From positions 64,103 to 128,102 of the forward strand of contig JACPDH010000077.1 of NCBI GenBank assembly GCA_016184115.1: a stretch of DNA of 64,000 bases, given 5' to 3'. Positions 6,419 through 45,573 of the stretch are shown piece after piece. The translations under genes and the position numbers were made by a program. Numbering within the stretch: the first letter of the stretch is position 1; each line of letters opens with the position of its first letter. The notes under the pieces were generated by a model, which was not told the DNA's origin, did not search any database, and saw only the letters and a program-made list of their open reading frames with translations. Source of the stretch: Acidobacteriota bacterium. Its GTDB lineage: Bacteria; Acidobacteriota; Thermoanaerobaculia; Gp7-AA8.

Positions 6419-6597
6419 GCCCGCATTTCTCATAGCCCTTCTGCTGCGACAGCCGATAGCTGTCTGTCTGCTTCATAGCGCGACGATCTCACTCCTCGAC
6501 ATAGTGTCAGCGATGCCGTCGTCGCGAAAACGCCGCGCGCCTCGCATTCAGGCCACTCTCGGCTGTCTCGCGACGAAGGGCTGTGAGAAATGCGGGC
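6419..6597 (+). ncRNA. Structured 5' leader / candidate cis-regulatory RNA closed by a 20-bp long-range helix
   Basis: GCCCGCATTTCTCATAGCCC (6419-6438) pairs with GGGCTGTGAGAAATGCGGGC (6578-6597). All 20 positions pair when transcribed from the + strand, with one G-U wobble (this would be A-C on the minus strand). Encloses about 140 nt of comparatively AT-rich non-coding sequence. Confidence 0.35.
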
Positions 6598-14999: not shown

Positions 15000-15773
15000 T
15001 CAGCCAGCCTGTTGCGCCACGGCTTTCGGTTTGAAGATCCGGTGTTTGTAGATCTTCTTCTTGTCCAGCTTGTAGTAGACCATCGTCTTCAGGATCTCGA
15101 GCCCGTAGCGGACGCTGCGCCAGAAACTGATCTGTGAGGCTTCTTCGAAATAACGGGTCTGAATCGGGACCTCGCGGAATTTCATCCCCGCGGCGACGCC
15201 CTGCGCGATGATCTCGGTGTCGAAGACGAAGTTGTCGGAGTTCGCTTCGAAGTTGACGGCGTCGAGGTATCGCTTCGAGTAGGCGCGGAAGCCGGAGTGG
15301 TACTCGGAGAGAAAGACGTAGAAGGTGGCGTTCTCGACGGCGGTCAGGAAGAGGTTTGCGAAGTACTTCCACTTCGGCATCCCTCCTTCGATCGGCCGGC
15401 CGCCCAGCATCCTCGAGCCGAACACCGCATCGCATTCGTCGTTGAGCAATGGCTGGACGAGGTGTGGAACGATCGTCGGGTCATACTGATGGTCGGGGTG
15501 GACCATGACCATGATCTCGCCGCCGAGCTCGTCCATGGCGGTGCGGTAGCAGGTCTTCTGGTTGCCGCCGTAGCCGCGGTTCTGCTTGTGGACGACCACG
15601 CGGATTCCGAGCTTCTGCGCGAGGGCGACGGTGCCGTCCTTCGAACAGTCGTCGACCAGGAGGATCTCGTCGACCCAATCCTTCGGGATGTCGTCGAGCG
15701 TTGCCGCCAACGTCTTCTCGGCGTTGTAGGCCGGCAGGACGACGACGACTTTTTTATTTCGTTTCTGGGGCAT
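15000..15773 (-). CDS. GT2 glycosyltransferase, DPM1/Ppm1/GtrB/CsbB-like polyprenyl-phosphate sugar synthase (soluble form)
   Basis: VVVVLPAYNAEKTL...VDDCSKDGT (DxD)...HPDHQYD. About 257 aa with no C-terminal TM. Start taken at MPQKRNKK. Divergent from the YfhO cluster. Confidence 0.7.
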   Translation of the reverse strand: MPQKRNKKVVVVLPAYNAEKTLAATLDDIPKDWVDEILLVDDCSKDGTVALAQKLGIRVVVHKQNRGYGGNQKTCYRTAMDELGGEIMVMVHPDHQYDPTIVPHLVQPLLNDECDAVFGSRMLGGRPIEGGMPKWKYFANLFLTAVENATFYVFLSEYHSGFRAYSKRYLDAVNFEANSDNFVFDTEIIAQGVAAGMKFREVPIQTRYFEEASQISFWRSVRYGLEILKTMVYYKLDKKKIYKHRIFKPKAVAQQAG

Positions 15774-15841
15774 CGAATAGTGCCCGATTGGGCGCGCAAA
15801 GGTTAGCACAGGGGCTCGCGTACGGTTACAATCCGCGCCGC

Positions 15842-18205: not shown

Positions 18206-20580
18206 CCTCCAATGAGAGCGCCGATCGTCGGCAGACGGCGAGAGCCTTCGCGTTCCTCGCAGCGCTCGTGGCCGTCGCATTCGCCGATCTCCTCGTTTTC
18301 GGCAGGCGGCTCTTCATACGCGATGTCGCGAATTTCTACTTCCCGACGAAGAAGCTGCTGCGGGAGGCGTGGCTCTCGGGCGACCTGCCACTCTGGAACC
18401 ACGCCTACTCGGCCGGACAGCCGATGGCGGCGAACCCCGAGTATGGGGCGTTCTATCCGCCTCATCTTCTGCTGCTTCTGCCCGACTACGCGTTCGCGTT
18501 CCAACTGCTGATCGTCGTTCACGTCGTGATCGGTGCGTGGGGCGCCTATCGTTTTCTTCGCTCGCTCGGGCTCCGCGAGTCGTCGAGTCTCTTCGGAGCG
18601 GTGACGTTCGCGTTTGGCGGGCTGACTGCGTCGCTCCTCAATCTGCTGCCTTACCTGTTTCTGCTGACCTGGCTCCCCTGGGCGTTTCTGCATGTGAGGC
18701 GTTGGTTGACCTCGGGCGGCTGGGGAGACATGGCGCTCGCGGCGCTCTTCCTTGGATTGCAGATTCTCACGGCGGAGCCGAGCACGCTGGTTCAAGTCTG
18801 GTTGCTCGTGGGGCTCTACGCGATGCATCGCGTCGCACGAGCCGAGCGCAAGCGCGACGCGATCGAGAGGATTGCGCCGCGAGTCGGCGTGCTGCTCGTC
18901 GCCGCAATCGCGGTCGGTGCGATCCAGCTTCTGCCTGCGATCGACCATGCGGGCGACTCGGTGCGTGCGGAGCCGTTTGCCTATAAAACGGTGCGAAGTT
19001 GGAGTATGCCGTCGATCAGGCCTGCGGAGGTCGCAATTCCAGGCGCTTTCGGCCGCGTCTGGCGAGAAACGGAGACCGCGTACTTTGGCGGGATCTTCTA
19101 TGCGCCTCGACCGCTGCCGTTTCTCTTCAGCGTCTACGCCGGGATGTTAGGCTGCTGTCTCGCGGTCGCCGGGATTCGGGCGAGGCTTCCTGGTACCGGC
19201 CTGCTGCTCGCGGTCGCGGCGCTTTCGTTCGTATTCGCGCTCGGTGACCATACGCCACTGCTCCGGTGGTTGTACGACGCGGGTATCGCGACCTCGTTCC
19301 GTTACGCGGAGAAGTTCGCGATCATGGGGCTTCTCGCGCTGATGGTCTACCAGGCGCGCGCGTTCGACGCGCTTCTCGACGATCCGCGCCGGATGGGACG
19401 CGCGGCCTCGGTTGCGGCGGCGCTCTGCCTCGCAGTGTCTCTGGGGGCGGTCGTCTTCTTCTCGTCGGCGCAGGGCCCCGACCTCGCGCGCTCGCTCACG
19501 GGGTTGGGGAGCGACGACGTGCTCGCGGCGATCGTTCGTGACGCGCGCGTCGACTGGACTGCGAATTCTCTGCGGGCCGCCGTGGCCCTCGCGCTTTGCG
19601 TGGCAGCGGCACGCGGGCGGGTGGGAAGGAAATGGGTGGCGGTCGCGATCGTGAGTGCGTTCGTCGATCTTGCCGTGGCATCTCGGGCCGTCGCGCCGTC
19701 GATCGAGCCGAGCTTCTACGATGAACCGCCTGCGGCTGCGCAGCTTGGCGACGACCGCCACGCATACAGAATCTTCCCGCTCGCGGATTGGTACGACACG
19801 TTCGGCCTCAGCGAGAACGGCCGTAGGTTCGCCGCGACGGGGAAAGGCGTTTACTGGACATGCCGGAACGGGCTTGCGCCGATGATTTCAGCCGCCTGGG
19901 GTTTTCGATATGCGATGGAGGTCGACTATGACCGGACGAACCTTCTGCCGGCGAAGCGCTTCGTCGAGGTCATGTGGCGCGTGCGTAACGAGGCTGGTGA
20001 GGCGCGCGACGCGACGCTGATGGCGATGGCGGGCACGCGCTACAAGACGAGGTTCCGCGACCACTCGAGAGCAACCGTGGCAGGCATGCGCGAAGAGTCG
20101 ATCGAACCGATCGAGCTCGAGCAAAAGGGAACGGGGGAGCGGTACTACTTCGCCGATCGGATCATCATCGCACGCGATGCGGAATCGATGGCTCGTTCGA
20201 TCATCGCGGTCGATCCCGGGCCACACGCGGCGTTTCTCCCGGAGGAAATGGCGGGGGTGGCGCCCGGAAAGGTGATCTCATGGAGAGAGACGTCTCGATC
20301 AATCGAGCTGGACGTCGACGCTTCCGGGAGGTCGTTGCTCGTGCTGAGCATCACCCCGCACCGCTACTGGCGCGCGAGCGTCGACGGCAAGCCGGCCCGG
20401 CTCCTCACCGTGAACACCGGATTCAGTGGCCTGTCGTTGGAGCGCGGAAGGCAGCGGGTACTGCTCGAGTACCGCAATCCCGTCGTGATTGCAGGCGCAG
20501 AGATCAGTCTCGTCGCCGTGCTTTGTCTCGGAACAATCGCGGTAGTCAGTGGCCGCAGGCGGCGCGAGCCGCTACGGTAG
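18202..20580 (+). CDS. YfhO-family membrane glycosyltransferase-like protein, paralog 2
   Basis: RDVANFYFPTKK...LWNHAYSAGQP...NPEYGAFYP; C-terminal ITPHRYWRASVDGKPARLLTVNTGFSGLSLERGRQRVLLEYRN. GTG start overlaps the paralog-1 stop (GTGA). Confidence 0.6.
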   Translation: MTSNESADRRQTARAFAFLAALVAVAFADLLVFGRRLFIRDVANFYFPTKKLLREAWLSGDLPLWNHAYSAGQPMAANPEYGAFYPPHLLLLLPDYAFAFQLLIVVHVVIGAWGAYRFLRSLGLRESSSLFGAVTFAFGGLTASLLNLLPYLFLLTWLPWAFLHVRRWLTSGGWGDMALAALFLGLQILTAEPSTLVQVWLLVGLYAMHRVARAERKRDAIERIAPRVGVLLVAAIAVGAIQLLPAIDHAGDSVRAEPFAYKTVRSWSMPSIRPAEVAIPGAFGRVWRETETAYFGGIFYAPRPLPFLFSVYAGMLGCCLAVAGIRARLPGTGLLLAVAALSFVFALGDHTPLLRWLYDAGIATSFRYAEKFAIMGLLALMVYQARAFDALLDDPRRMGRAASVAAALCLAVSLGAVVFFSSAQGPDLARSLTGLGSDDVLAAIVRDARVDWTANSLRAAVALALCVAAARGRVGRKWVAVAIVSAFVDLAVASRAVAPSIEPSFYDEPPAAAQLGDDRHAYRIFPLADWYDTFGLSENGRRFAATGKGVYWTCRNGLAPMISAAWGFRYAMEVDYDRTNLLPAKRFVEVMWRVRNEAGEARDATLMAMAGTRYKTRFRDHSRATVAGMREESIEPIELEQKGTGERYYFADRIIIARDAESMARSIIAVDPGPHAAFLPEEMAGVAPGKVISWRETSRSIELDVDASGRSLLVLSITPHRYWRASVDGKPARLLTVNTGFSGLSLERGRQRVLLEYRNPVVIAGAEISLVAVLCLGTIAVVSGRRRREPLR

Positions 20581-20592
20581 AATCCGGCGGCG

Positions 20593-22953
20593 ATGGCGGA
20601 AGCGGGTGACGTCACGGCGGAACGCCGGAACGACTTCTTGGCGATGGCGTTGCTGTCGCTCATTGTCACGGTCCTGTACGCGGACGTGCTCTTTCTCGGG
20701 GCGAACTTTTTCACACGCGATCTTACGATCTATCACTACCCGATGAAGTGGGTCGTGCGCGAGTTGATACTCGGCGGCGACTTCCCGTACTGGAACCGGC
20801 TCTACTCCGCAGGTCAGCCGCTCGCGGCAAACCCGGCGTACGAAGTCTTTTATCCGCTCCAATGGCTGACGCTCCTGCCCGACTACAATTTTGGTTTCCG
20901 TCTCCACATCGTGGCGCACGTCTTCATCGCGGTGATCGGGGCGTACCGTTTTCTCCGTTCTCTCGAGTTGGGAGCGCCCGCGAGCCTCGCAGGTGCAACG
21001 GCATTCGGGCTTTGCGGGCCGTACGTCTCGACGGTCAACCTGTTGCCGTTTCTATTCAGCGTCAGCTGGGCGCCGTGGATCGCCCTCTACGCGCGGCGCT
21101 GGCTCCTCGCGCGGAGAGCGCGCGACTTCGCGGCGGCGGGCCTCGTCCTCGGGATGCAGGCGATCGTCTGCGAGCCCGTGACGCTTCTCCAGACGTGGGG
21201 TGTCATCGTCCTGTACGCGATCGGTGCCGGCTGGAAGCAGGGAGTGCTACGCGGGGCGATGAGAGGCGTGGCGCGATCGATCGGCCTCGTTGCGACCGGC
21301 ATCGCAGTCGCCGCAGTCCAGTTTCTCCCCGCGATCGACCACGCGTACGACTCCGTTCGAGGCCGCGGCTTCGAGCTCTGGGTCGCCTCACGGTGGAGTG
21401 TCGCGCCCGTTCGCCTCATCGAGGAGATCTTCCCGAATGTGTTTGGCTCGTCGGAGGGGCTCGGGCGGCTCTACTGGGGACAGTTTCGATTCGGCATGGA
21501 AGCGGGCGGTCCGTTTCTCTACAGCATCTATTTGTCGGTCGCGATCGTAGCGCTCGTGGTTGCTGGAATGTGGGGACGCGTGGCAGGACGGGGATTGACG
21601 GCGCTCGTGGCGGTGCCTTCCATCGTGCTTTCCTTCGGCGCGCACACTCCGCTGCTTGCGCTGATGCACGGCGCGGGGCTGCTGCCGTCAGTCCGCTACC
21701 CGGAAAAATTCATGCTTGTCGCGTCGTTCGCGTTGCTGACTTACGCGGCGATCGTGTTCGACGCGATCGTCAAGGGTAACAGTGCGTTGGCACGAAGGGG
21801 GGCGTGGCTCTGCGCTGCGTCGGGCGTTGTCGCGGCGGTGGTGTTCATTCTTTGCTTCCAGCCCGGATATCCCGAATGGTTCATGGAGTTCTGGCGTCGT
21901 ACTGACAGGAGCGCCGCATTGATCGCGCGGACGCAGTGGTTCGTCTCGGCGATTCGGAGCATCGCGTTCGCGTTCGCCTTCGCGGCACTCGCGCGCGACA
22001 CGGGGAGGAAAGCGATCGCGCTCTTCGTGCTCTTTCTCGTCGCCGACCTCGCTCCTCTCGGCAATCAGATCAATCCCCGAATCGACCGGAGCTTTTTCGA
22101 CACGCCGCCGCCTCTCCTCGCGAAGCTCGACATGCGGGGCACGAGACTCGCCCACGTTGCCGCGTTGCAGTTAGGCTCGAACGAGCAGAAAGCGTACTTC
22201 AAGTCGTACCGGACCTATTGGACGCTGCGAAACGGGCTCTGGCCCTACTCTCCCGCGCTCTGGGGTGTTCCGACCTGTCTCGAGTACGACGTTGACGAGA
22301 CGCAGCTGACGGCGACGCGCGACGTGATCGAGCTAGCCGACGTACTGTCGAAGAGGGGGATCACGGATTGGATCCCGATCGTCGGAGCGTGGTGCGCATC
22401 GGGGCCGGTGCTCACCTACCGTCATCCGGCTGCCGAGTTGAAGCGAATCGGTGATCGCTGGGACGAGATCGAACCGGTCACGGTGGATCCGTTCGTGCGA
22501 TACCCGCGGTATTTTTTTGCATCAGAAGTGGTCGCGGCTGCCGACAATACGGTACTAGCGGACTTGCTCGTCGCGCGACCGAGGAGTCCGCGCACGGCGT
22601 TCGTGAGGGAGGGCGCGTGGCGAGCCGGGAATGGCAGAGTCGTTGCCGCGCAGGAATCGGCGAGTCGCACGTTGGTCGATGTCGACGCCGGCGAAGACGC
22701 GTTTCTCGTTCTCGCTTCGACCTGGCACAAGTACTGGCGCGCAACGGTTGATGGCAGACAGGTGGAGATTGTTCCGACAAACGTCGCATTCCAGGGAATC
22801 GCAATCCCGAAGGGGGTGCATCGCGTGGAACTGCGCTACAGCAACCCGCTCATCGCGGTCGGAGGATTCCTGAGCCTGATGGCGCTCGCGACGCTTGCGG
22901 TCGTTGCAATCCGCGGCAACGGAAGAGCGGTTGGCGTAGGAGCGAACGAATGA
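20593..22953 (+). CDS. YfhO-family membrane glycosyltransferase-like protein, paralog 3
   Basis: RDLTIYHYPMKW...YWNRLYSAGQP...NPAYEVFYPLQWL; C-terminal STWHKYWRATVDGRQVEIVPTNVAFQGIAIPKGVHRVELRYSN. Confidence 0.6.
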   Translation: MAEAGDVTAERRNDFLAMALLSLIVTVLYADVLFLGANFFTRDLTIYHYPMKWVVRELILGGDFPYWNRLYSAGQPLAANPAYEVFYPLQWLTLLPDYNFGFRLHIVAHVFIAVIGAYRFLRSLELGAPASLAGATAFGLCGPYVSTVNLLPFLFSVSWAPWIALYARRWLLARRARDFAAAGLVLGMQAIVCEPVTLLQTWGVIVLYAIGAGWKQGVLRGAMRGVARSIGLVATGIAVAAVQFLPAIDHAYDSVRGRGFELWVASRWSVAPVRLIEEIFPNVFGSSEGLGRLYWGQFRFGMEAGGPFLYSIYLSVAIVALVVAGMWGRVAGRGLTALVAVPSIVLSFGAHTPLLALMHGAGLLPSVRYPEKFMLVASFALLTYAAIVFDAIVKGNSALARRGAWLCAASGVVAAVVFILCFQPGYPEWFMEFWRRTDRSAALIARTQWFVSAIRSIAFAFAFAALARDTGRKAIALFVLFLVADLAPLGNQINPRIDRSFFDTPPPLLAKLDMRGTRLAHVAALQLGSNEQKAYFKSYRTYWTLRNGLWPYSPALWGVPTCLEYDVDETQLTATRDVIELADVLSKRGITDWIPIVGAWCASGPVLTYRHPAAELKRIGDRWDEIEPVTVDPFVRYPRYFFASEVVAAADNTVLADLLVARPRSPRTAFVREGAWRAGNGRVVAAQESASRTLVDVDAGEDAFLVLASTWHKYWRATVDGRQVEIVPTNVAFQGIAIPKGVHRVELRYSNPLIAVGGFLSLMALATLAVVAIRGNGRAVGVGANE

Positions 22954-24347
22954 GGTTGGTGAATCGGTGGTCGTCGTCATTTCGATGGGTCGTCGGGCTT
23001 GTGCTCGTCGTGTTCCTCGCGCTGATCGTTCTGACGTTCCGACTCTCGAAGCCTCTCGAGGATCGCACGTACGTTCCTTTGGAGGAAGTGATTACGCCGG
23101 AGATCACACTCCTCCAGGAGTACGTCCGGATCGACACGTCGAATCCTCCCGGCAGGGAGCTCGACGGCGCAAGGTTCCTCATCGCGGAGCTCGCACGCCG
23201 GGGAGTCACGGCGGAGTTGATCGAGTCGGCCCCCGGACGTGCGAACGTCTACGCTCGCATCAAAGGGAAACGCCGCGGTGACGGACTCTTGCTTTTGCAT
23301 CACATCGATGTCGTTCCGCCAGGAGCGGAGGGATGGAGCGAACCTCCCTTTGCCGCGAAGACGAAGGCGAACATGCTCTATGGCCGGGGCACGCTCGACA
23401 TGAAGTCCATTGGTATCAGCCACCTCCTCGCGTTCGCCGATCTCGCGGCGATGGAGAGCCCGCCTCAACGCGACGTCGTATTCCTCGCGGTCGCCGATGA
23501 GGAGGCGGGCGGTGCGTTAGGCGTCGCTTGGCTGCTCGCGAACCGTCCCGACGTGTTCGAAGATGTCGGCTTTGCACTGAACGAAGGTGGGATCAGCGAG
23601 ACGGCCGAGGAGAAGCCGCGCCTTTTCGGAATCGAAGTCGGCACGCGCCAGCTCGTCAACCTCTCCCTGAAGGCGCGTGAACGGAGGCCTCTCGAGCTGG
23701 CCCGCACGGCGCTCCTCCCGTTCCAGAACCCCCGCGATCCGGAGCGCATTCTTCCCGAGGTTCCGGGGATTCTGAGAAACGCCTCGATGTACCGGATCGA
23801 GAAACGCGAGCTTCTTGCCGACGTCGAAGCGACGATCGCGAACGGCGATTTCTTCCGCTTGAGCACGGTGGATCGCTCGCTCTTCTTCTCCGCGATGAGT
23901 CTCGACGGCGTGCTCGCGGCGCCTGAAGGCGGCTTCACCATGAACGTCGTTCTGAACAACCTGTCGGACGTCAATCCTGACGATGCGATTGCGCGCGTCA
24001 GGCAGATCGTCGATCGATTCGGCGTCGCGATTGAGGTGGTCAGCAAGCAGGGGCCGTCGCCGATCACACCGACAGACTCGCGACTCTTTGCGCTCATCAG
24101 CGAGGAGGTCCGCCGTTCGTACGGCGACGAAGTCTTCGTCGGGCCGATTATTCTTCCCTTCTCCTCGAACGACTCTCGCTACCTGCGCCCGCGCGGGATC
24201 CGCGCGTACGGCCTTAGTCCGTTTCCCGTGACTCTCTACCAGACGTGGGGGATTCACGGGAGCGATGAGCGAATCCGGCTCGACTGGTTCGTCGAAGGTG
24301 TGAAGCTCACACGCCGCGTGGTGGCGAGGTTCGCGATGGAGCAGTAA
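22950..24347 (+). CDS. Secreted M20-family metallopeptidase (ArgE/DapE/ACY1/CPG2-like), paralog a
   Basis: Signal/TM anchor. HHIDVVP, GRGTLDMKS, ADEEAGG motifs. ATGA overlap with the YfhO-3 stop. Confidence 0.75.
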   Translation: MRLVNRWSSSFRWVVGLVLVVFLALIVLTFRLSKPLEDRTYVPLEEVITPEITLLQEYVRIDTSNPPGRELDGARFLIAELARRGVTAELIESAPGRANVYARIKGKRRGDGLLLLHHIDVVPPGAEGWSEPPFAAKTKANMLYGRGTLDMKSIGISHLLAFADLAAMESPPQRDVVFLAVADEEAGGALGVAWLLANRPDVFEDVGFALNEGGISETAEEKPRLFGIEVGTRQLVNLSLKARERRPLELARTALLPFQNPRDPERILPEVPGILRNASMYRIEKRELLADVEATIANGDFFRLSTVDRSLFFSAMSLDGVLAAPEGGFTMNVVLNNLSDVNPDDAIARVRQIVDRFGVAIEVVSKQGPSPITPTDSRLFALISEEVRRSYGDEVFVGPIILPFSSNDSRYLRPRGIRAYGLSPFPVTLYQTWGIHGSDERIRLDWFVEGVKLTRRVVARFAMEQ

Positions 24348-24510: not shown

Positions 24511-25038
24511 ATGATGCGAATCTCTCGTAAGCAGAAGGGTTTCACGCTCATTGAGCTGCTGATCGTCGTGGCGATCATCGGCATTCTGGCTGCGATCGCC
24601 ATTCCGAACCTGCTCTCCGCGATGCAGCGGTCGAAGCAGAAGAGGACGATGGCAGACATGCGTTCCATCGCGACGGCGTGGGAGTCCTACGCAACGGACT
24701 ACAACGCCTACAACGCTGCTGGTCAGGCGAGCTCGCTCGACATGGCCGACTTCAGCACCTACAGTTTCGCGAGCCTCATCGCGCGTGTCTCGCCGACCTA
24801 CATTCGCGCTCTGCCCCAGAAGGACGGGTGGGGAAATGACTTCACGTACGCCATCGATAACTCCACCGCGCTCAAGGCTCAGGAGTACGTGATTCGTTCG
24901 TTCGGCAAGGACGGACTGGAATCCGAAGGCGGTTCCTACACGAATGGACCGCGCCACGTATTCGAGTGCGACATCGTCTTCACGATGGGCGCATACGTTT
25001 CGTATCCGGAAGGCGTTCAGCAGGCGAAGTCGGACTAA
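24511..25038 (+). CDS. Type IV pilin-like protein (prepilin-type N-terminal cleavage/methylation domain)
   Basis: Leader MMRISRKQKG then mature FTLIELLIVVAIIGILAAIAIP (Phe+1, Glu+5). S/T/Y-rich C-terminal half. RBS AGGAGGA upstream. Confidence 0.8.
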   Translation: MMRISRKQKGFTLIELLIVVAIIGILAAIAIPNLLSAMQRSKQKRTMADMRSIATAWESYATDYNAYNAAGQASSLDMADFSTYSFASLIARVSPTYIRALPQKDGWGNDFTYAIDNSTALKAQEYVIRSFGKDGLESEGGSYTNGPRHVFECDIVFTMGAYVSYPEGVQQAKSD

Positions 25039-25234: not shown

Positions 25235-26632
25235 ATGCGCCGCCTCTCTGGAATTGCTCTCATCCTCTTCGTGCTGAGCTTCGCGCAGAACTGTCGCGAG
25301 GCGGAAGCGGTTTCCGAGTCGCCGTTCGACAAGGAAGCCCAGAGTTACTTCATCGACTATCTGAAGATCGACACCTCGAACCCTCCCGGGAACGAGACCA
25401 CTGGCGCGGAGTTCCTTCGCGCAATCCTCGCGAAAGAAGGGATTGACGCAAAGCTCGTGGGACCCGACGCCGCGCGCAAATCGGTCTGGGCGCGACTCGA
25501 ATCGGGGAGCAGCAAGCCTGCGCTCCTGCTCATGCACCACATCGACGTGGTTCCGGTCGCTGAGAAGGAGTGGAGCGTCGCTCCGTTCTCCGGTGAGAAA
25601 GCGAACGGCTACATCTGGGGACGTGGCGCGCTCGACATCAAGTCGCTCGGAATCGCCCACCTCATGGCGATCATCGACATTAAGCGGCGAGGCGTGCCAC
25701 TCGACCGCGATATCGTGTTCCTTGGGGTAGCCGATGAGGAGACCGGCGGTAAGGCCGGCGTTCAGGCGCTGCTCGAACGGCAGCCCGAGCTCTTCAAAGG
25801 AGTCGGGTTCGTGCTCAACGAAGGTGGCGCAAATATTACGGTGGTCGATCGCATCGAGTCTTGGGGGATCGAAGTCGATCAAAAAGTTCCACTCTGGCTC
25901 CGCCTCACGGCGAAGGGCGAAGGGGGGCACGCGGCGATGCCTCCGCCGGATGGTGGAGCGACGCGAAAGCTGATCGAAGCCGCCTCCGCGGTCAGTGCCA
26001 TTCCGATGCGTACGGAACTGCACCCTTCGGTCGAGACATTCTTCAAATCGATCGCGCCGACCAAGCCGGGCAAGCGCGGGCAGGTGCTCTCCGATCCCCG
26101 ACGGCACATTGGTACTCCGCAGATCGCGGAGCTTCCGTACGGGCTTCAACTGCTTCTTCGCGACACGCTCGTGCTCACGCGACTCGAGGCGGGTACTTCG
26201 ACGAATGCGGTGCCTGACATCGCGACCGCAGATGTCGACATCAGGCTGTTGCCAGGCAGCGACCCATCGGATCTCATCCGACAGGTTAAGCAGGTCGTCG
26301 GTTCGCTTGCGGAGGTCGAGGTGCTGCTCAGCGGGCCGACCGCCCCTGCGTCGCCGGTCGATACCGAGTTATACACCGCGCTCGAAAAGGTGCTGCGCAG
26401 CGCCGCGCCTAAGTCGAAAGTGGGACCGATGGTTTCCGCGGGCACGACCGACAGCCGCTACTTCAGACGGCGCGGTATCGTCGCCTATGGTTTCTCACCG
26501 TTCAAGGTCAACTACTACGACGGCGCGACTGTCCACGGCTCTGACGAAAGGATCCGCATCCGCTTTTTCCTCGAAGGAGTGGCGCTGACGCGGCAGATCG
26601 TGAGCAGTTTCTGCGCCCGCAAGGCCGCATGA
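25235..26632 (+). CDS. Secreted M20-family metallopeptidase, paralog b
   Basis: Signal peptide MRRLSGIALILFVLSFA. MHHIDVVP, GRGALDIKS, ADEETGG. Same length (465 aa) as paralog a. Confidence 0.75.
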   Translation: MRRLSGIALILFVLSFAQNCREAEAVSESPFDKEAQSYFIDYLKIDTSNPPGNETTGAEFLRAILAKEGIDAKLVGPDAARKSVWARLESGSSKPALLLMHHIDVVPVAEKEWSVAPFSGEKANGYIWGRGALDIKSLGIAHLMAIIDIKRRGVPLDRDIVFLGVADEETGGKAGVQALLERQPELFKGVGFVLNEGGANITVVDRIESWGIEVDQKVPLWLRLTAKGEGGHAAMPPPDGGATRKLIEAASAVSAIPMRTELHPSVETFFKSIAPTKPGKRGQVLSDPRRHIGTPQIAELPYGLQLLLRDTLVLTRLEAGTSTNAVPDIATADVDIRLLPGSDPSDLIRQVKQVVGSLAEVEVLLSGPTAPASPVDTELYTALEKVLRSAAPKSKVGPMVSAGTTDSRYFRRRGIVAYGFSPFKVNYYDGATVHGSDERIRIRFFLEGVALTRQIVSSFCARKAA

Positions 26633-28779
26633 CGCGGCCGGCGTGGCGCCTGGCGGTGATCGCTGTCGTCGCGCTCGCTCCTTTTCTTCCGATGCTCGTG
26701 CGCGGCGAAGTGCCCGCGTTCCGCGACCATCGCGACTACTTCATTCCTCTTCGCGAAGCGACCGCCGAGGCGCTTCGGTCACACGAGCTTCCGCTCTGGA
26801 ATGCGCTCAGCGGCTCCGGCGAGCCGTGGCTCGCGAACCCGCAGACGGGCGTGTTCTATCCGCCGGCCTGGATACCGGCAGTACTCCCGTTCGAGATTGG
26901 ATACGTTCTCTTTCTCGCGCTCCATCTGGCAATTGCGGGATGGGGCTGGCGCCGCCTCATGATGCGGTGGACGGGTGACAGCGTGGCCACCCTCTCCGCC
27001 TGCGCGCTGATGCTCTCCGGTCCGATGCTCTCGCTTCTCGACGTTTCGAACTCGCTCGGCACCTTCGCGTGGATTCCGCTCCTACTTTCGTTTGCCCTCG
27101 AAGGGCGGCAGGATCGCGGCGCCGCGCGCGATGCGATCACGATCGCGCTCTGCTTTCTGGGCGGGGAACCGCTGCTCGCCCTGATCGCAGCAATTCTCTA
27201 TTCGGGCATCAGACTCCTCCGTGAAGGAGTTGCCGCGGCGCGGCCCGTAGCGGGCGTGGCGATCGTGTCGTTCCTCCTTTGCGGCGTGCAGCTACTTCCC
27301 TTCGTCGAGAGTCTCCGCGACAGCGACCGGTCTGCGGGACTCGAGGCCACGTCGTCGCTCGCTCACTCGCTGGCTCCTGTCGATTGGCTTCGCATGGCGG
27401 TTTCTCCGATGGCACCCGGAGATCGCTCCGTTGCGATGGGCTCCCAGCAGTTTCTCCCGTCGATCTATGTCACGCCGCTTCTTGCGCTTCTGCCATTTGC
27501 GGTGCCGTTGCTCTGGCATCGTGGGAGGTTACCTCGACGAGCCTGCGCCGGGCTTCTTCTGCTCCTCGTCGCGTCGGCGTTTCTCGCGGCCGGCTCGAGC
27601 ATGGCGCTGTCTTCGCGCGTCTATATGCTGCTGGGCCTCGCGGTGAATCGATACCCCGTCAAGCTCGCGTTGTTCGGAGTGCTCGCACTCGTTGCGCTCG
27701 GAACCATCTGCCTCGACCGCCTCCTCGACAGCCCGCGGCGAGACGCCTGTTGGGCGATCGCAGGCGTCGCGTTCGCCGCGACGATCCCATTCCTCGCCGC
27801 GGTCTCGGCCGGCGGCCACGCGGCCACGCTGCTGGCGGGCTGGGTCGTGCTGCTTGCCATTGCCGTCATCGCGAGACCGCCGCGAGTCTGGGTGGTTGCC
27901 GTCCTTGCGCTCGCGGTGTGCGCGGATTCGATCGCGTCGTCGCGGTTTCTGCTCGGATCACGCCCGCACACCTCCTCGATCACTCCGCACGCCGAGCTCA
28001 TGAGGAGGGACAGAAAAGTCGCTCGCCTCGAGCAGCTCGACGTGCTCATTGATCCAGCAGCGAGTCGGGCGAGCCGCGAGTCATGGCTTGGTGGTTACCT
28101 CAATCTTCGCAACGGACAGCCTGACGCGATGACGGCTGCTCCGGTCGTCGACGCGCACTACCTCGTACTCCTCGACTACGCGCTCTCTCGACCGCGACTC
28201 GACATCCTCGACGTGATCGGCGTTGGGTATCTCCTGACCATGCGGCAATTCGACGCTCCAGGGTTCCGTCAGATCGGCGAGCGTGACGGAGTGCGAATCT
28301 ACGAGCGCGATGCGGCGTTCCCGCCCGTCACGATCTGGGAGAGTCATGCGGTTGCGCGCGACCGCGACGACGCGTTCGCGTTGCTCTGGGGTGAATCGTG
28401 GAACGCGACGACGCGAATCGTCGTGACGGGCAGCGCTCCGGCACCTCTTCATGCCGCGGCCGCAGGCCCAGTGGGAACGGGGCGCGTCGTCGCAACGACC
28501 TGGCGGTCGCTAAGCGTTTCGGTGGAGTCGCCGCGGGGCGGCATTGCGGTCGTCACTCAGCGTGCGGCTCCTGGTTGGCGTGTCGTTGTCGATGGGTCTC
28601 CTCGAGAGGCTCTGCTCGTCGATGGCGTCTTTCGCGGTGTCGCGGTTCCAGCGGGCAGGCACACTGTAGTTTGGAGCTATGAGCCGCGATCGTTCGTCGC
28701 TGGCGCGGCCCTTTCGTTCACCGGTGCCGCGATCATCGCAGGCGCCCTCATTCGGCGTCGTCGGACTCGCCGCGCCTAG
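26629..28779 (+). CDS. YfhO-family membrane glycosyltransferase-like protein, paralog 4 (most divergent)
   Basis: RDHRDYFIPLRE...LWNALSGSGEPWLANPQTGVFYP. Multi-TM; C-terminal periplasmic region. 4-nt overlap with the M20b stop. Confidence 0.5.
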   Translation: MTRPAWRLAVIAVVALAPFLPMLVRGEVPAFRDHRDYFIPLREATAEALRSHELPLWNALSGSGEPWLANPQTGVFYPPAWIPAVLPFEIGYVLFLALHLAIAGWGWRRLMMRWTGDSVATLSACALMLSGPMLSLLDVSNSLGTFAWIPLLLSFALEGRQDRGAARDAITIALCFLGGEPLLALIAAILYSGIRLLREGVAAARPVAGVAIVSFLLCGVQLLPFVESLRDSDRSAGLEATSSLAHSLAPVDWLRMAVSPMAPGDRSVAMGSQQFLPSIYVTPLLALLPFAVPLLWHRGRLPRRACAGLLLLLVASAFLAAGSSMALSSRVYMLLGLAVNRYPVKLALFGVLALVALGTICLDRLLDSPRRDACWAIAGVAFAATIPFLAAVSAGGHAATLLAGWVVLLAIAVIARPPRVWVVAVLALAVCADSIASSRFLLGSRPHTSSITPHAELMRRDRKVARLEQLDVLIDPAASRASRESWLGGYLNLRNGQPDAMTAAPVVDAHYLVLLDYALSRPRLDILDVIGVGYLLTMRQFDAPGFRQIGERDGVRIYERDAAFPPVTIWESHAVARDRDDAFALLWGESWNATTRIVVTGSAPAPLHAAAAGPVGTGRVVATTWRSLSVSVESPRGGIAVVTQRAAPGWRVVVDGSPREALLVDGVFRGVAVPAGRHTVVWSYEPRSFVAGAALSFTGAAIIAGALIRRRRTRRA

Positions 28780-39949: not shown

Positions 39950-40690
39950 ATGGGCGACTACTCGGAGTTCGGACTGAAGATCCGCGCAACGCTTGCGGTT
40001 TACCGATGGCAGCGGATCGACCCGATGCCGTGGGCCGAGCTGGGCAGGCCGGTCGCCGAAGCGAACGTCGCGCTCGTGTCGACCGCGGGGCTAGCGCTGC
40101 CAGGGCAAGCGCTCTTCGATGACGGAGTGAAGGGGGGCGACTTCTCATTTCGCGAGGTTCCGTCGTCGACCGATCCGCAGTGCCTCGTCGAGTCGCACCG
40201 GAGCGACGCATTCTCCCGCGACGGACTCGCGGAAGACCGAAACCTGGTCTTTCCGATCGACAGAATGCACGAACTCGAGCGAGAGGGTGCGATCGGGAGG
40301 TTCAACGCGCGCTGCATCTCGTTCATGGGCTCGATCACGGCGCCGAGGCGGCTGATGCTGGAGACGGCGCCACGTGCCGCGGAGATCCTTGTCGGCGACG
40401 GCGTCGACGTCGCGCTCCTCGTCCCTGTCTGACCGACCTGCAATCAAACGGTCGGTCTGATCGGCGCGGAGATGGAGAAGCGAGGGATCGCGACGGTCGT
40501 TCTGTCGCTCCTCCGCGACGTCACGGAGAAGGTGGGTCCGCCACGTGCCCTATGCGTGCCGTTCCGGCATGGTTACCCGCTCGACGTTCCGTCGAACCCT
40601 GCGAGGCAGCGACGCGTGATCAAGGCGGCGCTCGAACTGCTCATTCGGCCGCGAAGCGAGGCGCCGGTACTCGTCGACTACGTGCCGTAG
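39950..40690 (+). CDS. GrdB/PrdB-family (glycine/D-proline reductase selenoprotein B-like) candidate selenoprotein; in-frame TGA at 40430-40432 read as Sec
   Basis: Two ORFs (39950-40432 and 40472-40690) are in the same frame, separated only by one TGA and 13 sense codons. Read-through gives ...[24 protein letters not shown]..., a U-x-x-C redox motif. A hairpin GACCGACC-N11-GGTCGGTC starts in the TGA. Confidence 0.5.
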
Positions 40691-40837
40691 TGGCCTGTAT
40701 TGAAGGAATTGGTACCACGGTAGCAATTCCTCCGATACAGGCCATTAGTCGTCGCGAACGGCCGCGGCTCCTCCGCGTGACGTCCTTTTGCCACTGGCAG
40801 GAACGACCTCCAACGCTTTTGCTAGAATCGCGCCGCC

Positions 40838-42112
40838 ATGCTGTCACGAGAATATCTGCGCGAATCCACCGATGCCTACCGCGAGGCCCTGAAGAACCGT
40901 CGTGCCAGCGTCGATCTCGATCGTTTCCTCGAGATCGATGCGGAGCGCAGGCGCGTGATCGTCGAGGCCGAGCAGCTCAAGAACCAGAAGAACGTCGCCT
41001 CGCAGGAGATCGCCCTCCTCAAGAGAGAGAAGAAGGACGCCGCGGCCGAGATCGATGCGATGAGGCAACTCGGCGAGAGGATCAAGGATCTCGACGTTCG
41101 TCAGGCCGAAATCGAGCAGGAGCTTCACGACCTCGAAATGATCTTCCCGAACGCCCCTCATGCGTCGGTCCCCGTCGGGCCCGACGAGAGTGCGAACAGG
41201 GTTGAGCGCGTCTGGGGCGCACCACCTTCATTCGAGTTCGAACCGAAGAACCACTGGGACATCGGCGAAGCTCTCGGCATCCTCGACTTCGAGCGTGCCG
41301 CGAAGATCACGGGCGCACGCTTTGCGGTGATGATCGGTGCGGCCGCGCGCCTCGAGCGCGCGCTGATCAACTTCATGCTCGATGTCCACACGCGCGAGCA
41401 TGGATACGTCGAGGTGCTTCCGCCATTCATGGTCAACGCCGACTCGCTGCGCGGAACGACGCAGCTGCCGAAGTTCGAAGCGGATCTCTTCAAGCTTCAG
41501 GGCGAGAAAGAGTATTACCTCATCCCGACCGCCGAGGTGCCGGTGACGAACCTGCACCGTGACGAGATCCTCGATGGCGACAGGCTGACGATCTCGTACT
41601 GCGCCTACACACCCTGCTTTCGCAGTGAGGCGGGCTCGTACGGAAAGGACACACGCGGTCTGATCCGCCAGCATCAGTTCGACAAGGTCGAGCTCGTCAA
41701 ATTCTCGCGCCCTGACACTTCGTGGGCCGACCTCGAGACGCTCACCGCGAATGCGGCGACGATCCTCGAGAAGCTCGGGTTGTGCCACCGCGTCGTCACG
41801 CTCTCGACCGGCGACATGGGGTTTGGCTCGGCAAAGACCTACGACATCGAAGTCTGGCTCCCCGGCCAGGCGACGTTCCGCGAGATTTCGTCATGCACGA
41901 ATTTCCTCGACTTCCAGGCGCGGCGCGCGAACATCCGCTTCCGCGGCGACGGGAAAAAGACCGAGCTCGTACACACTCTGAATGGATCGGGTCTCGCGGT
42001 CGGGCGAACGCTCGTTGCGGTCCTCGAGAATTACCAGCAGGCCGATGGCTCGGTCGTCGTCCCTAACGCACTGCGTCCCTACATGGGCGGAATCGAACGG
42101 ATCTCAAAGTGA
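40838..42112 (+). CDS. serS: Seryl-tRNA synthetase
   Basis: N-terminal coiled-coil, class II motifs, ...[21 protein letters not shown]... Confidence 0.9.
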
Positions 42113-42140: not shown

Positions 42141-42872
42141 ATGAGACCAGTCATCGGCATCGGCTGCGACGTCGAGCCTTCACCGCATGGCGAAGGGCGT
42201 GAGTTGATGTACGTCTACGGCACCTACCTCGAGGCGATCGAGATGGCGGGAGCGATCCCGCTCCTCCTTCCGCCGATCGAAGAGGTGCTGGAGCGGACGC
42301 TTCCGCTGCTCGACGGGGTGATACTCGCCGGTGGTGATGACCTCGATCCAGCGAGCTACGGTGAGGCGAACGCGGCGTGCCGCGAGCTACTCGATGGCCG
42401 CCGCCAGCGCCATGACCTGGCCCTTGCGCGGCTGACGCGCGAGCAGAGGATTCCTACGCTCGGGATCTGCCTAGGCGCCCAGCTGATCAACGTCGCCGCA
42501 GCGGGCTCGCTCGTGCAGGACATCGGCTCCACGCTTCCCGAGTCGATTCAGCACACAGGCCGGACGGGGACGCGAGGGCGCCATCGCGTCTCGATCGAAC
42601 AGCGCTCCCGGCTTGCAGCGGTTCTCGGCGCGATCGAGGTCGACGTGAACTCAGGGCATCACCAGGCGGTGAAGGATCCCGGTCGCGGGCTCTCGATCGT
42701 TGCGCGTTCCGGCGATGGGGTCGTCGAGGCAATCGAAGACGCATCGCATCCGTTCTATGTTGGCGTGCAGTGGCACCCCGAAGAGATGCTCGCGGAGGAG
42801 TCCGCGCAGCGTCTGTTTCACGCGTTCGTCGAAGCGGCAAGGACGTGCGGGCGGCTGCGGCGCAAGTCGTGA
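42141..42872 (+). CDS. Class I glutamine amidotransferase-like / gamma-glutamyl-GABA hydrolase family (peptidase C26)
   Basis: GICLGAQLINVA (Cys nucleophile), HQ, and WHPE motifs. Confidence 0.7.
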   Translation: MRPVIGIGCDVEPSPHGEGRELMYVYGTYLEAIEMAGAIPLLLPPIEEVLERTLPLLDGVILAGGDDLDPASYGEANAACRELLDGRRQRHDLALARLTREQRIPTLGICLGAQLINVAAAGSLVQDIGSTLPESIQHTGRTGTRGRHRVSIEQRSRLAAVLGAIEVDVNSGHHQAVKDPGRGLSIVARSGDGVVEAIEDASHPFYVGVQWHPEEMLAEESAQRLFHAFVEAARTCGRLRRKS

Positions 42873-42942
42873 CGGCTCCGCCACTCCTGCGCGGAATAGC
42901 CCTTGGAAGCGACTCGTTGCGGCGAGTTTGACGGAGGCTCGA

Positions 42943-43782
42943 TTGAAGCGGATTTCAGGACTCGCCGCGCTCGTCGTGGCGATGACGCTCGCACCGCAGG
43001 TTGCGGCTGCCGGTACATGGCACAAGACGGTCGCCAAGGCGCAAGCCGAGGCGAAGCAGGGCAATAAGCTGATCGTCGTCGACCTCTGGGCCGACTGGTG
43101 TGGCTGGTGCAAGCGCATGGATCAGGAAGTGTTCCCGTCCGAGACCTTCCAGGCCGCCGCCAAGAACTGGAGCCTTCTGAAGCTCGACACCGAGGATGGC
43201 GCCGAAGGATCGAAAGTGGCCGCGCAGTTCGGAATTCGCAGCCTTCCGACGCTTCTCGTCCTCACGCACGATCTCACGCTTGCAGGAGTCGTCCAGGGAT
43301 ACGCGCCACCGGAGCAGTTCGTCGCCCGAGTCGAAGCGGTGGAAGATAGCTTCCTTACGTTCCAGAAGAAAGTCCACGCCGAGCCGAAGAATGCAAGCGC
43401 GAGAGCAAAACTGACGCTGACCGACGAGATGGTCGACCGGCACGATTACGTGCGAGCCGAACCGCGTCTCGTTGCGCTGACAAAGAGCAGCGACGCTGCC
43501 GTACGCGACGAGGCCTACAACATGCTTGCCGGGATCTACGTCGTGCAGCAGCAGTTCGCGAAGGCCGAGACGACGCTCAAGCAGGCGCTCGCGGTGACCT
43601 CCACCGGAGAGATCGCCGAGCGCAACCAGATGAACCTCGCGAATGTCTACATGGGGATGCGAAACTACCCTGCGGCGGTCGCCGAGCTGAAGAAGTTCAG
43701 GACCCGCTATCCGAAATCCGAAATGATCCCGAGCGTCGACGCGATCATCACGCAGCTCGAGAAACAGATTCCTGCCCGATAG
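42943..43782 (+). CDS. Secreted thioredoxin-like (CxxC) protein with C-terminal TPR repeats
   Basis: Signal peptide. DLWADWCGWCK thioredoxin active site. TPR-like C-terminus. TTG start with RBS GGAGG. Confidence 0.6.
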   Translation: MKRISGLAALVVAMTLAPQVAAAGTWHKTVAKAQAEAKQGNKLIVVDLWADWCGWCKRMDQEVFPSETFQAAAKNWSLLKLDTEDGAEGSKVAAQFGIRSLPTLLVLTHDLTLAGVVQGYAPPEQFVARVEAVEDSFLTFQKKVHAEPKNASARAKLTLTDEMVDRHDYVRAEPRLVALTKSSDAAVRDEAYNMLAGIYVVQQQFAKAETTLKQALAVTSTGEIAERNQMNLANVYMGMRNYPAAVAELKKFRTRYPKSEMIPSVDAIITQLEKQIPAR

Positions 43783-43797
43783 GCGGCCCCGAAATCC

Positions 43798-45573
43798 ATG
43801 ACATCCCCCTCGCGCCTTCCCCTGCAGGCCGCGGCGCTTCTGATCGCGGCAACCTCGCTTCACTCACAACTCAGTCCCGCTGGATTCGGCGGTGATTCCG
43901 CGACTCCAGTCGTCGAAATCGACGCGAAGTTCCTGAAGCCCGTGGCTGGCCGGATCGACGGCGTCGTCACGGTCACGATCCCCGAGACGTGGCACGTCAA
44001 CTCCTACAAGCCGAAGGACGAGTTTGCGATCCCGACGAAGGTAAGGGTCGAATCGCCCGCGTTTGCGATCGACGCGATCGACTATCCCCCGCACGTCGAG
44101 CGGGCGTTTGGTTTTGCCGGCGGTCAGATGCTTGCGGTGTACGAGGGGACGGTACGGATTCCCGTTCACGGAAGCGCGAGCGCGGCCGACGGCGACGTGA
44201 CGGTCGGCGTCTACTACCAGGCCTGCAACGACACGATCTGCCTTCCGCCGAGAGAAGTGATGAAGGCATTCACGTTGTCTGCGATCACCGTCGATTCGCT
44301 CGGCGAGGCGGCTCCGGCCGGAGGCGCATTCCAGAAGCTCTCGGACGCGCCGGGGGGCAGCTCGCAGGGGCTCTTCAGCGGCGACATCGGCTCGACGTTT
44401 CAGTCGCGTGGGCTCGCGACGACGCTGCTCGTCGTCTTTGTCCTCGGTATGGCGCTCACGCTGACTCCGTGCGTCTATCCTCTCATCCCGCTGACGATGG
44501 CCTTCTTCTCGTCGCAGACGGGAGGGAGCACGGCACGTCGTTTCGGCTTGTCATCGACGTACGTTCTGGGAATTGCGATTACCTACTCGACGCTCGGAGT
44601 TTTTGCGGCGATGAGCGGAGCGCTCTTTGGTGCGTGGATGCAGAAGCCGGTCGTTCTCGGCTTCTTTGCGCTCTTGATGCTGTTGCTCGCGCTCTCGATG
44701 TTCGGCCTTTACGACATCAACGTGCCGCAGTTCATCGCGAGCCGTGCGAGCGCAAGGGCCGGGTTCATCGGATCGCTCACGATGGGACTGCTTGCCGGCA
44801 TCGTCGCGGCACCCTGTGTCGGCCCATTCGTCGTCTCTCTGATCGCACTCGTGTCGCAGAGCGGCAACCCATACCTCGGGTTCCTGCTCTTTTTTGTCCT
44901 GGCGTTAGGTCTGGGAGTTCCCTTCCTCGCGCTCGGCATCTTCTCGAGCGGTGCGAGCTCGCTCCCGCGCTCCGGCCCCTGGCTCGTGAAGATCAAGCAG
45001 GCGCTCGGCTTCGTCCTGATTGCGATGGCGTTCTACTTCCTCCGGCCCGTGACCGGCGACGAAGTCTATCGCTGGGGCGTGGCAGCGAGTCTCGTGCTCG
45101 GTGCGCTATTCCTTTTCGTCCGGAGCGAGCGGACCAAAGCTGGCAACGTGATCCGACTCGTCTGCGGGCTCCTTCTGCTGGCCGGTGCCGTGCCGTTCGT
45201 GATGCCGAAGTCGGGTGGTCCCGAGATCCAGTGGGCGCGTTACGACGACGCTGCGATCGCCGCGGCCGCGCGCGAAGGAACGCCTGTCATCATCGATTTC
45301 TACGCAGATTGGTGCCTCCCTTGCAAGGAGCTCGACCACAACACCTTCAACCAGTCAGGTGTCGTTGCCGAGTCGAAGCGTTTCGCGACATTCAAGGCCG
45401 ACCTCACGCGAGGAGACGACGAGCGATCGAAGGAGCTCGTGAAGCGCTACGGAATCGTGGGCGTCCCGACGATCGTCTTCATCGACGCAACGGGGACTGA
45501 GCTTCGCGAGCTTCGCCTCGCGGGATTCGAAAAGCCCGAGCAGTTCCTCGCCAGAATGAAGAAGGCGAAGTAG
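43798..45573 (+). CDS. dsbD: Thiol:disulfide interchange protein DsbD (alpha domain + CcdA-like TM core + C-terminal thioredoxin)
   Basis: TM core with LTPCVYPLIPL and AAPCVGPF. C-terminal Trx WCLPCKELD. Confidence 0.8.
   Translation: MTSPSRLPLQAAALLIAATSLHSQLSPAGFGGDSATPVVEIDAKFLKPVAGRIDGVVTVTIPETWHVNSYKPKDEFAIPTKVRVESPAFAIDAIDYPPHVERAFGFAGGQMLAVYEGTVRIPVHGSASAADGDVTVGVYYQACNDTICLPPREVMKAFTLSAITVDSLGEAAPAGGAFQKLSDAPGGSSQGLFSGDIGSTFQSRGLATTLLVVFVLGMALTLTPCVYPLIPLTMAFFSSQTGGSTARRFGLSSTYVLGIAITYSTLGVFAAMSGALFGAWMQKPVVLGFFALLMLLLALSMFGLYDINVPQFIASRASARAGFIGSLTMGLLAGIVAAPCVGPFVVSLIALVSQSGNPYLGFLLFFVLALGLGVPFLALGIFSSGASSLPRSGPWLVKIKQALGFVLIAMAFYFLRPVTGDEVYRWGVAASLVLGALFLFVRSERTKAGNVIRLVCGLLLLAGAVPFVMPKSGGPEIQWARYDDAAIAAAAREGTPVIIDFYADWCLPCKELDHNTFNQSGVVAESKRFATFKADLTRGDDERSKELVKRYGIVGVPTIVFIDATGTELRELRLAGFEKPEQFLARMKKAK

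Follow-up and report, generated by a model that had tools for sequence, protein, structure and literature searches.

Does the TGA at positions 40430-40432 of this stretch of Acidobacteriota DNA (the window, i.e. the whole 64 kb that was analysed) end a gene, or does it encode selenocysteine (Sec) inside one? An initial annotation, made from the letters alone, had proposed the latter, namely: a short GrdB-type selenoprotein at 39950-40690, with a hairpin at the UGA serving as the Sec insertion sequence (SECIS). By comparing the locus with its relatives, we arrive at a probability of about 0.88 that 39950-40690 is a single gene for a PrdB-like protein and that its in-frame UGA encodes Sec. As judged from the family alignment, the conserved SECIS is a different hairpin, at 40443-40461.

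One reading frame across an in-frame UGA

The ATG at 39950, on the forward strand, opens an open reading frame (ORF) of 160 codons that is ended by the TGA at 40430-40432. Beyond this codon the same frame stays open for 85 sense codons, up to the stop TAG at 40688-40690, and its earliest in-frame ATG is found at 40472, 13 codons on. Our frame check thus agrees with the original description of two ORFs in one frame, parted only by this TGA. Read through, the coding sequence comprises 246 codons including Sec161 and yields a product of 246 residues with U161-P-T-C164, so that the U-x-x-C motif had also been called correctly. Cys164, encoded by the TGC at 40439-40441, is the presumed resolving Cys of this motif; it is a Cys in all Sec-type loci examined, and its position is that of the second Cys of the C-x-x-C motif in most Cys-type relatives and in true PrdB. 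Collinear homologues have a conserved MGDxSEF start.

A systematic scan of the 64 kb for in-frame TGA codons with a coding-like codon composition on both sides gave 40430-40432 as the only credible case. The NCBI record cuts the gene at the UGA, under the name ‘MAG: selenoprotein B glycine/betaine/sarcosine/D-proline reductase [Acidobacteria bacterium]’, where MAG stands for metagenome-assembled genome. A reassignment of TGA in the genetic code was considered and rejected, since TGA is the commonest ordinary stop codon of the window (21 of 40 genes).

The UGA and the codons that follow it are conserved

A protein search of 5.8 billion protein clusters returned 1580 homologues. About 112 of the best 120 stop at exactly ...LLVPV, after 160 amino acids or near, i.e. 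at the position of the UGA. A few full-length relatives of 247-263 amino acids (P0002-P0006, P0013 and P0019) read V-P-V-C-P-x-C-N-Q-T instead and carry Cys at the UGA position, as do the distant relatives P0121, P0128 and P0267. At the nucleotide level, a scan of one genome per species gave 299 relatives, of which the best 80 were studied together with five other loci. The codon aligned with the window's UGA is TGA in 83 of 84 distinct related loci and TGC in the remaining one (L078), while TAA or TAG occurs in none; with duplicates included, TGA is found in 88 of the 89 placements as fetched. Cys-containing orthologues at the U position, for which the initial annotation had advised a check, are therefore present both among the full-length proteins and at L078. 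The host labels comprise Thermoanaerobaculia, Acidobacteriota, Verrucomicrobiota, Desulfobacterales, Binatia, Myxococcota, Brocadia and Gemmatimonadales; the organism labels of MAG contigs are as deposited, and a few of them hardly suit a GC-rich sequence. Contigs L020, L078 and L067, for example, carry the GC-rich gene under the labels of Bifidobacterium, Bifidobacteriaceae and Akkermansia muciniphila MAGs, and are probably mis-binned.

The sequence P-x-C-[NST]-Q-[TA]-V-x-L-[IV]-A-A-E-L-E-R, which directly follows the TGA, is specified by some of the most conserved codons of the protein. Across an alignment of 82 Sec-type sequences, the mean column entropy at codon positions 1, 2 and 3 is 0.49, 0.21 and 1.20 past the TGA, compared with 0.24, 0.02 and 1.36 just before it. 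Variation past the TGA is thus concentrated at third positions, which points to purifying selection on translation of the downstream part. Moreover, the window ORF shares 76-77% amino-acid identity with the related loci L006 and L007 over all 246 residues. A conserved TGA, Cys-containing homologues and coding conservation past the TGA together form what is generally accepted, in comparative work, as the hallmark of a bacterial selenoprotein gene. This evidence excludes readings of the locus as two genes or as a pseudogene.

Two further observations were made on the Sec position in single relatives. On the Binatia MAG contig L066 there are two PrdB-like genes of the Sec type, separated by 4.2 kb (at 6481 and 10664), each with a TGA and a SECIS hairpin. 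The full-length homologue P0007, from a JGI contig of 949 bp, has Trp at the Sec position (VPV-W-PMCNQ), which could be a TGA-to-TGG change or an artefact of gene calling or sequencing.

A family-conserved SECIS hairpin

RNA structure was analysed in an alignment without gaps that spans positions -12 to +75 relative to the TGA in the 82 Sec-type sequences. RNAalifold found one helix only, joining columns 26-32 with columns 38-44. In the window this is a hairpin at 40443-40461 on the forward strand, identified by RNAalifold and covariation, with a 7-bp stem and a 5-nt loop: the 5′ arm AUCAAAC (40443-40449), the loop GGUCG (40450-40454) and the 3′ arm GUCUGAU (40455-40461). The hairpin starts 10 nt and its loop 17 nt past the UGA, and there is a weak extension of the stem at 40440-40441/40463-40464. 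Over the helix and its two-pair extension, 96.5% of the cells of the alignment are in standard pairs and 53 cells are changed on both sides, a count that is uncorrected for phylogeny; none of 500 column shuffles matched the pairing or the covariation score. When the 3′ partner is slid by 1-3 columns, a control that is corrected for phylogeny, the pairing falls to 17-46%.

Most of the covariation signal is held by two pairs. One of them changes from C-G to U-A in 19 sequences and joins the third base of the Asn codon to the first base of a Val/Ile codon; the other is A-U in 39 and G-C in 33 sequences and joins the first base of a Thr/Ala codon to the third base of a Gly/Ser/Cys codon. These covarying pairs imply that amino-acid-changing substitutions have been compensated by synonymous ones. 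In the loop (N-G-U-N-N), the G at position 2 and the U at position 3 are nearly invariant. The hairpin is part of the minimum-free-energy fold of 73 of the 82 sequences, with a median of -9.8 kcal/mol. The four Cys-type loci available for comparison (L078, L088, L089 and L090) retain only part of it, namely 4-6 of the 7 pairs, despite a near-identical peptide.

Unlike the canonical bacterial SECIS of the E. coli fdhF type, the present element has a family-specific sequence that is constrained by the codons for N-Q-[TA]-V-x-L-[VI]. Its geometry is nevertheless of the known kind: the minimal fdhF element has a spacing of about 11 nt, which the present 10 nt fits, and the bSECIS model of Zhang & Gladyshev 2005 reportedly places loops about 16-37 nt downstream of the UGA, where the present loop also falls. 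On these alignment data, we conclude that the conserved SECIS is 40443-40461 and not the hairpin that had been suggested initially.

A second hairpin in the lineage of the window

The hairpin of the initial annotation lies at 40431-40457 on the forward strand and pairs GACCGACC (40431-40438) with GGUCGGUC (40450-40457) in 8 bp around an 11-nt loop. Its 5′ arm takes in the G and the A of the UGA, its loop opens 6 nt past that codon, and its 3′ arm is re-used by the SECIS. The local RNA does indeed reach its minimum free energy in this fold (-28.7 kcal/mol for 66 nt, z = -3.4, with 1 of 200 shuffles as stable), and the 8-bp stem alone amounts to -14.2 kcal/mol. Across the 82 homologues, 73.9% of the cells pair at this hairpin, the covariation measures equal those of shuffled controls, and the structure forms in only 5 sequences. 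Thus the claim that a hairpin exists at the UGA holds, while the SECIS role given to it does not. We conclude that it is an alternative structure, specific to this lineage and in competition with the SECIS.

The SECIS of the window itself is peculiar in having an A40447·C40457 mismatch, unique among the 82 sequences, which goes with the Gln codon CAA in place of CAG. Its two closest relatives differ from each other: at L007 the SECIS and the alternative hairpin are both intact, and at L006 one G weakens the two structures, so that neither is intact. We regard the window gene as functional because both halves of its ORF are intact and are 76-77% identical to these two loci. Sec insertion may, however, be less efficient or structurally modulated in this lineage.

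Relationship to PrdB and GrdB

The joined product matches the Pfam family GRDB (PF07355) with 23.6 bits, a borderline pass of the gathering threshold of 22, and PF07355 is the precomputed assignment for most homologues. The NCBIfam model of PrdB, TIGR04483, is matched with E = 4.6e-33 over profile positions 16-219 of 238. A relation of the joined product to the GrdB family, which the initial annotation had wished to see checked against PF07355, is borne out by both matches. The score of 114.6 bits does not reach the equivalog cut-off of TIGR04483 (300 bits), and the models of GrdB, GrdF and GrdH (TIGR01917, NF040794, NF040795 and TIGR01918) give 31-49 bits against cut-offs of 65-800, or 602-800 for TIGR01917, NF040794 and NF040795, and are matched through their C-terminal part only.

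A profile search of 1.84 billion representatives gave 2719 relatives, 1116 of them at E <= 1e-10. One of these relatives, P0267, scores 453 bits with the PrdB equivalog model and passes it. The window protein is collinear with P0267 (31% identity over 208 residues by BLASTP), and U161-P-T-C164 aligns exactly on its active-site C-G-T-C. Both the 246-residue protein and true PrdB of 241 residues match the C-terminal half of GrdB. The earlier term ‘short GrdB’ is therefore right as to the GrdB/PrdB family, and ‘PrdB-sized’ is the better description of the length.

Comparison with the characterized systems leads to the same placement. True PrdB (TIGR04483; Clostridium sticklandii and Clostridioides difficile) has about 240 amino acids, is collinear with the window protein and has Sec/Cys-x-x-Cys at the same position. 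The two differ in the context of the motif, which is V-U-P-x-C-N-Q in the window's clade and G-C/U-G-T-C-H-R-S in true PrdB; the motif conserved in the family is U-P-x-C-[NST]-Q-[TA], compared with C-G-T-C-H-R-S. They differ also in their host phyla and in the window gene having no prdA, prdC, prdD or prdE nearby. GrdB, GrdF and GrdH have about 435 amino acids, and it is their C-terminal 150-230 or so residues, Sec site included, that the window protein matches; it is without the N-terminal half of GrdB, and no grdA, grdC, grdD, grdE or trxB is encoded nearby. By its sequence, then, the protein is PrdB-sized and PrdB-shaped and belongs to a distinct stand-alone clade without an NCBIfam model of its own.

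The AlphaFold2 model of P0002, a 60%-identical Cys form, is a confident single-domain alpha/beta fold (predicted local distance difference test score 90.9, predicted template modelling score 0.91), with the motif placed between the strand 154-158 and the helix 162-177. Fold searches gave generic Rossmann-like matches only.

Some distant Cys-type (C-P-x-C) relatives (P0128, P0129, P0138, P0152, P0154, P0155, P0158 and P0165; P0199 and P0270) show fusions of the PrdB-like domain: those of about 380-420 amino acids have a conserved C-terminal domain of about 150 residues without a Pfam match, and others carry an N-terminal HTH_3 domain. No separate partner protein made of this C-terminal domain was found near the Sec-type genes.

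Gene neighbourhood

Clustering was applied to every ORF lying up to 4 kb from the gene in 81 distinct neighbourhoods. No partner gene recurs across phyla in this set, which shows lineage-level synteny only, and the Pfam-annotated neighbourhoods examined contain no PF09338-type gene. A Pfam scan of the 40 larger ORFs or genes of the window finds none of grdA, grdE, trxB or prdA, in line with the grd operon partners noted as missing at the outset; more widely, grdA, grdE, grdC, grdD and trxB are absent from the window and the neighbourhoods examined.

The gene order in the window is VWA protein, S8 peptidase, PrdB-like gene, serS, GATase, thioredoxin-like and DsbD. This order is common to L004/L005 and partly to L006; it is not that of L001, L002 or other phyla. 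As first stated, the next gene downstream is serS (40838-42112; Pfam Seryl_tRNA_N and tRNA-synt_2b). A functional link of serS to Sec was rejected, since the adjacency is confined to the window and its closest lineage (L004/L005 and L006) and reflects local synteny. Two and three genes downstream, at 42700-45573, are found a protein with thioredoxin and TPR domains and a DsbD-type thiol:disulfide transporter, an order that is conserved in L004/L005 and L006 only.

Between the selenoprotein gene and serS there is also a near-perfect hairpin of 60 nt at 40688-40747, which begins at the TAG stop of the former. As RNA it reaches -44.1 kcal/mol over 81 nt (z = -7.2; 0 of 200 shuffles equally stable). 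Its arms are unique in the window. It lacks a T-run, and no terminator was called there; a Rho-independent-like structure, or one that stabilises the mRNA, is a possibility.

In Desulfobacterales, the next gene on the strand of the selenoprotein gene, about 18 nt further on, encodes an alpha/beta-hydrolase-OsmC fusion in 13 loci (about 6759-8093 in locus coordinates; L017, L021, L025, L029, L034, L035, L039, L041, L042, L045, L048, L060 and L074). Upstream there are genes for a Liv-type ABC transporter and for an AMP-binding enzyme. This synteny might hint at a redox or peroxide context.

Elsewhere in the window, at 15701-22953 and 26629-28779, there are genes for four paralogous membrane proteins of 716-834 amino acids with YfhO-like C-termini. 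They are interleaved with genes for two M20 peptidases (22950-24347 and 25235-26632) and a type II secretion/pilin-like gene (24511-25038).

Alternative explanations

A number of results weigh against our reading of the locus, or at least do not favour it. Neither the 64 kb of the window nor the 85 related loci yielded a selA, selB, selD or tRNA-Sec gene; the search used ARAGORN (window and all loci), Rfam (window), a Pfam scan of the 40 window genes and tblastn (window and the 85 loci) with the E. coli proteins SelA, SelB and SelD as queries. As this sequence amounts to only about 1-2% of each genome, the absence is uninformative. An Rfam search of the window gives no family that matches the SECIS element, and no solved structure of any relative was found. 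Finally, the SECIS of the window is worth -2.8 kcal/mol, against the family median of -9.8, and has to compete with an alternative hairpin of -14.2 kcal/mol.

The last of these points could mean that the gene is decaying or poorly expressed in this organism: its SECIS would be weakened by the CAA codon (A40447), its UGA sequestered, and its translation mostly stopped at codon 160. That the window alone, among the 82 sequences, has A·C at the SECIS pair is in keeping with this. Decay would nevertheless sit badly with two intact ORF halves at the identity to L006 and L007 given above, and the loop and the two closing pairs of the SECIS are intact as well. Bacterial SECIS stems are known to tolerate bulges, as in the E. 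coli fdhF element, and the alternative hairpin should be unable to form while a ribosome covers its 5′ arm; we consider decay very unlikely. The same energies might be taken to mean that the hairpin at 40431-40457 is the working SECIS in this lineage, as it is a perfect 8-bp stem and the minimum-free-energy structure in both the window and L007. However, its pairing is disrupted at L006, the closest relative, and 77 of the 82 homologues do not have it; its loop starts 6 nt past the UGA as opposed to the reported range of about 16-37 nt, and its 5′ arm, which holds the last two bases of the UGA, would be expected to melt under the decoding ribosome. This role is, if anything, a little harder to credit than decay. 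Least believable of all is an ordinary stop that separates two small proteins of 160 and about 72 amino acids, which is how gene callers and the NCBI record have it, with the ATG 13 codons downstream as the second start. Those 13 codons (U-P-x-C-N-Q-T-V-x-L-I) are among the most conserved of the family; the codon is always TGA, never TAA or TAG, in 83 distinct loci; and the Cys-containing homologues, like true PrdB, run across this point as one chain.

A different alternative accepts the Sec codon and concerns the function. The protein could be the subunit of a real D-proline reductase, or of another complex of the Grd/Prd type, whose pyruvoyl PrdA/GrdE-like partner is encoded elsewhere in the genome. 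Its length, architecture and active-site position all match PrdB, and JGI labels many homologues ‘D-proline reductase (dithiol) PrdB’. The scores speak against this assignment, being 114.6 bits against a cut-off of 300 for PrdB and far under all Grd cut-offs, as does the absence of a recurrent partner from the 81 neighbourhoods and of a PF09338-type gene from the annotated ones. The host phyla of the clade are not known to be Stickland fermenters. True prd genes, moreover, are operonic (prdB-prdC operon, PMC13188914). We judge the D-proline reductase assignment improbable, though slightly less so than decay of the gene.

Discussion

Selenoproteins homologous to PrdB have been recorded in environmental surveys for some time. 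Among the known selenoprotein families of the Sargasso Sea, surveyed in 2005, a ‘proline reductase (PrdB)’ family with pfam07355 and UxxC came third in abundance with its 42 genes (PMC1088965), and the PrdB family ranked seventh in the GOS data of 2008, with 235 Sec and 110 Cys forms (PMC2398784). A PrdB selenoprotein is listed in Anaeromyxobacter dehalogenans and Geobacter uraniireducens (PMC1794560), and five copies occur in the Olavius delta-1 symbiont (PMC1976440); our locus L074 likewise stems from an Olavius delta-1 symbiont genome. A survey of 2016 put the number of organisms with PrdB at 110 (PMC5029168), and ‘D-proline reductase, TIGR04483, UxxC’ is still the only such entry in a review of 2026 (PMC13188914). 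We found no ‘PrdB-like’ selenoprotein under that name in the literature, where the family goes only by ‘proline reductase/PrdB’. The survey family and the clade of the window have in common pfam07355, U-x-x-C, a mix of Sec and Cys forms, and environmental and non-Stickland hosts; these shared descriptors suggest that the clade and the marine survey sequences are the same. The surveys lump true PrdB with the stand-alone PrdB-like proteins and assign no function to the latter. The existence of PrdB-homologue selenoproteins outside Stickland fermenters is thus already established in the literature, since 2005; what we add is a corrected SECIS, evidence that speaks against labelling this clade D-proline reductase, and the unusual way in which SECIS and alternative hairpin are arranged in the lineage of the window.

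How the two hairpins might share one stretch of mRNA can be pictured as follows. With the UGA in the A site of the ribosome, the 5′ arm of the alternative hairpin would lie inside the mRNA channel. The SECIS at 40443-40461 would then be free to form and to recruit SelB·GTP·Sec-tRNA(Sec), as in other bacterial selenoprotein mRNAs, a step that we infer from the conserved geometry of the hairpin. A C directly follows the UGA in every sequence, as the first base of the Pro codon CCN, and the resulting UGAC context is a weak signal for release factor 2. In the finished protein, the selenolate of Sec161 would make the nucleophilic attack. The adduct would be resolved by Cys164, leaving a selenenylsulfide for a dithiol such as thioredoxin to reduce again; we propose such chemistry by analogy with PrdB and GrdB, for which it has been put forward. 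D-proline is an unlikely substrate, because no pyruvoyl PrdA partner is encoded nearby.

For annotation, the results mean that two ORF fragments become one selenoprotein gene, and that databases hold many copies of the PrdB-like protein cut at the same ...VPV. The well-defined, covarying SECIS could serve the automatic annotation of the family. The name ‘D-proline reductase PrdB’, which is attached to many homologues, is supported neither by the family model nor by the gene context.

For the organism, one selenoprotein gene at this locus implies that the Thermoanaerobaculia-like member of the Acidobacteriota represented by the MAG uses selenocysteine. The PrdB-like family is widespread and nearly always Sec-dependent, being found in at least eight phyla and in its Sec form at 83 of 84 distinct loci. 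It is conceivable, although we would put it at somewhat below even odds, that the stand-alone clade works on its own, as a selenoenzyme or redox protein with no connection to D-proline reduction, and that, in the lineage of the window, the 8-bp hairpin that sequesters the UGA could be a structural switch that tunes Sec insertion. If the stand-alone reading is true, one of the commonest environmental ‘PrdB’ selenoproteins would be a family mislabelled by homology.

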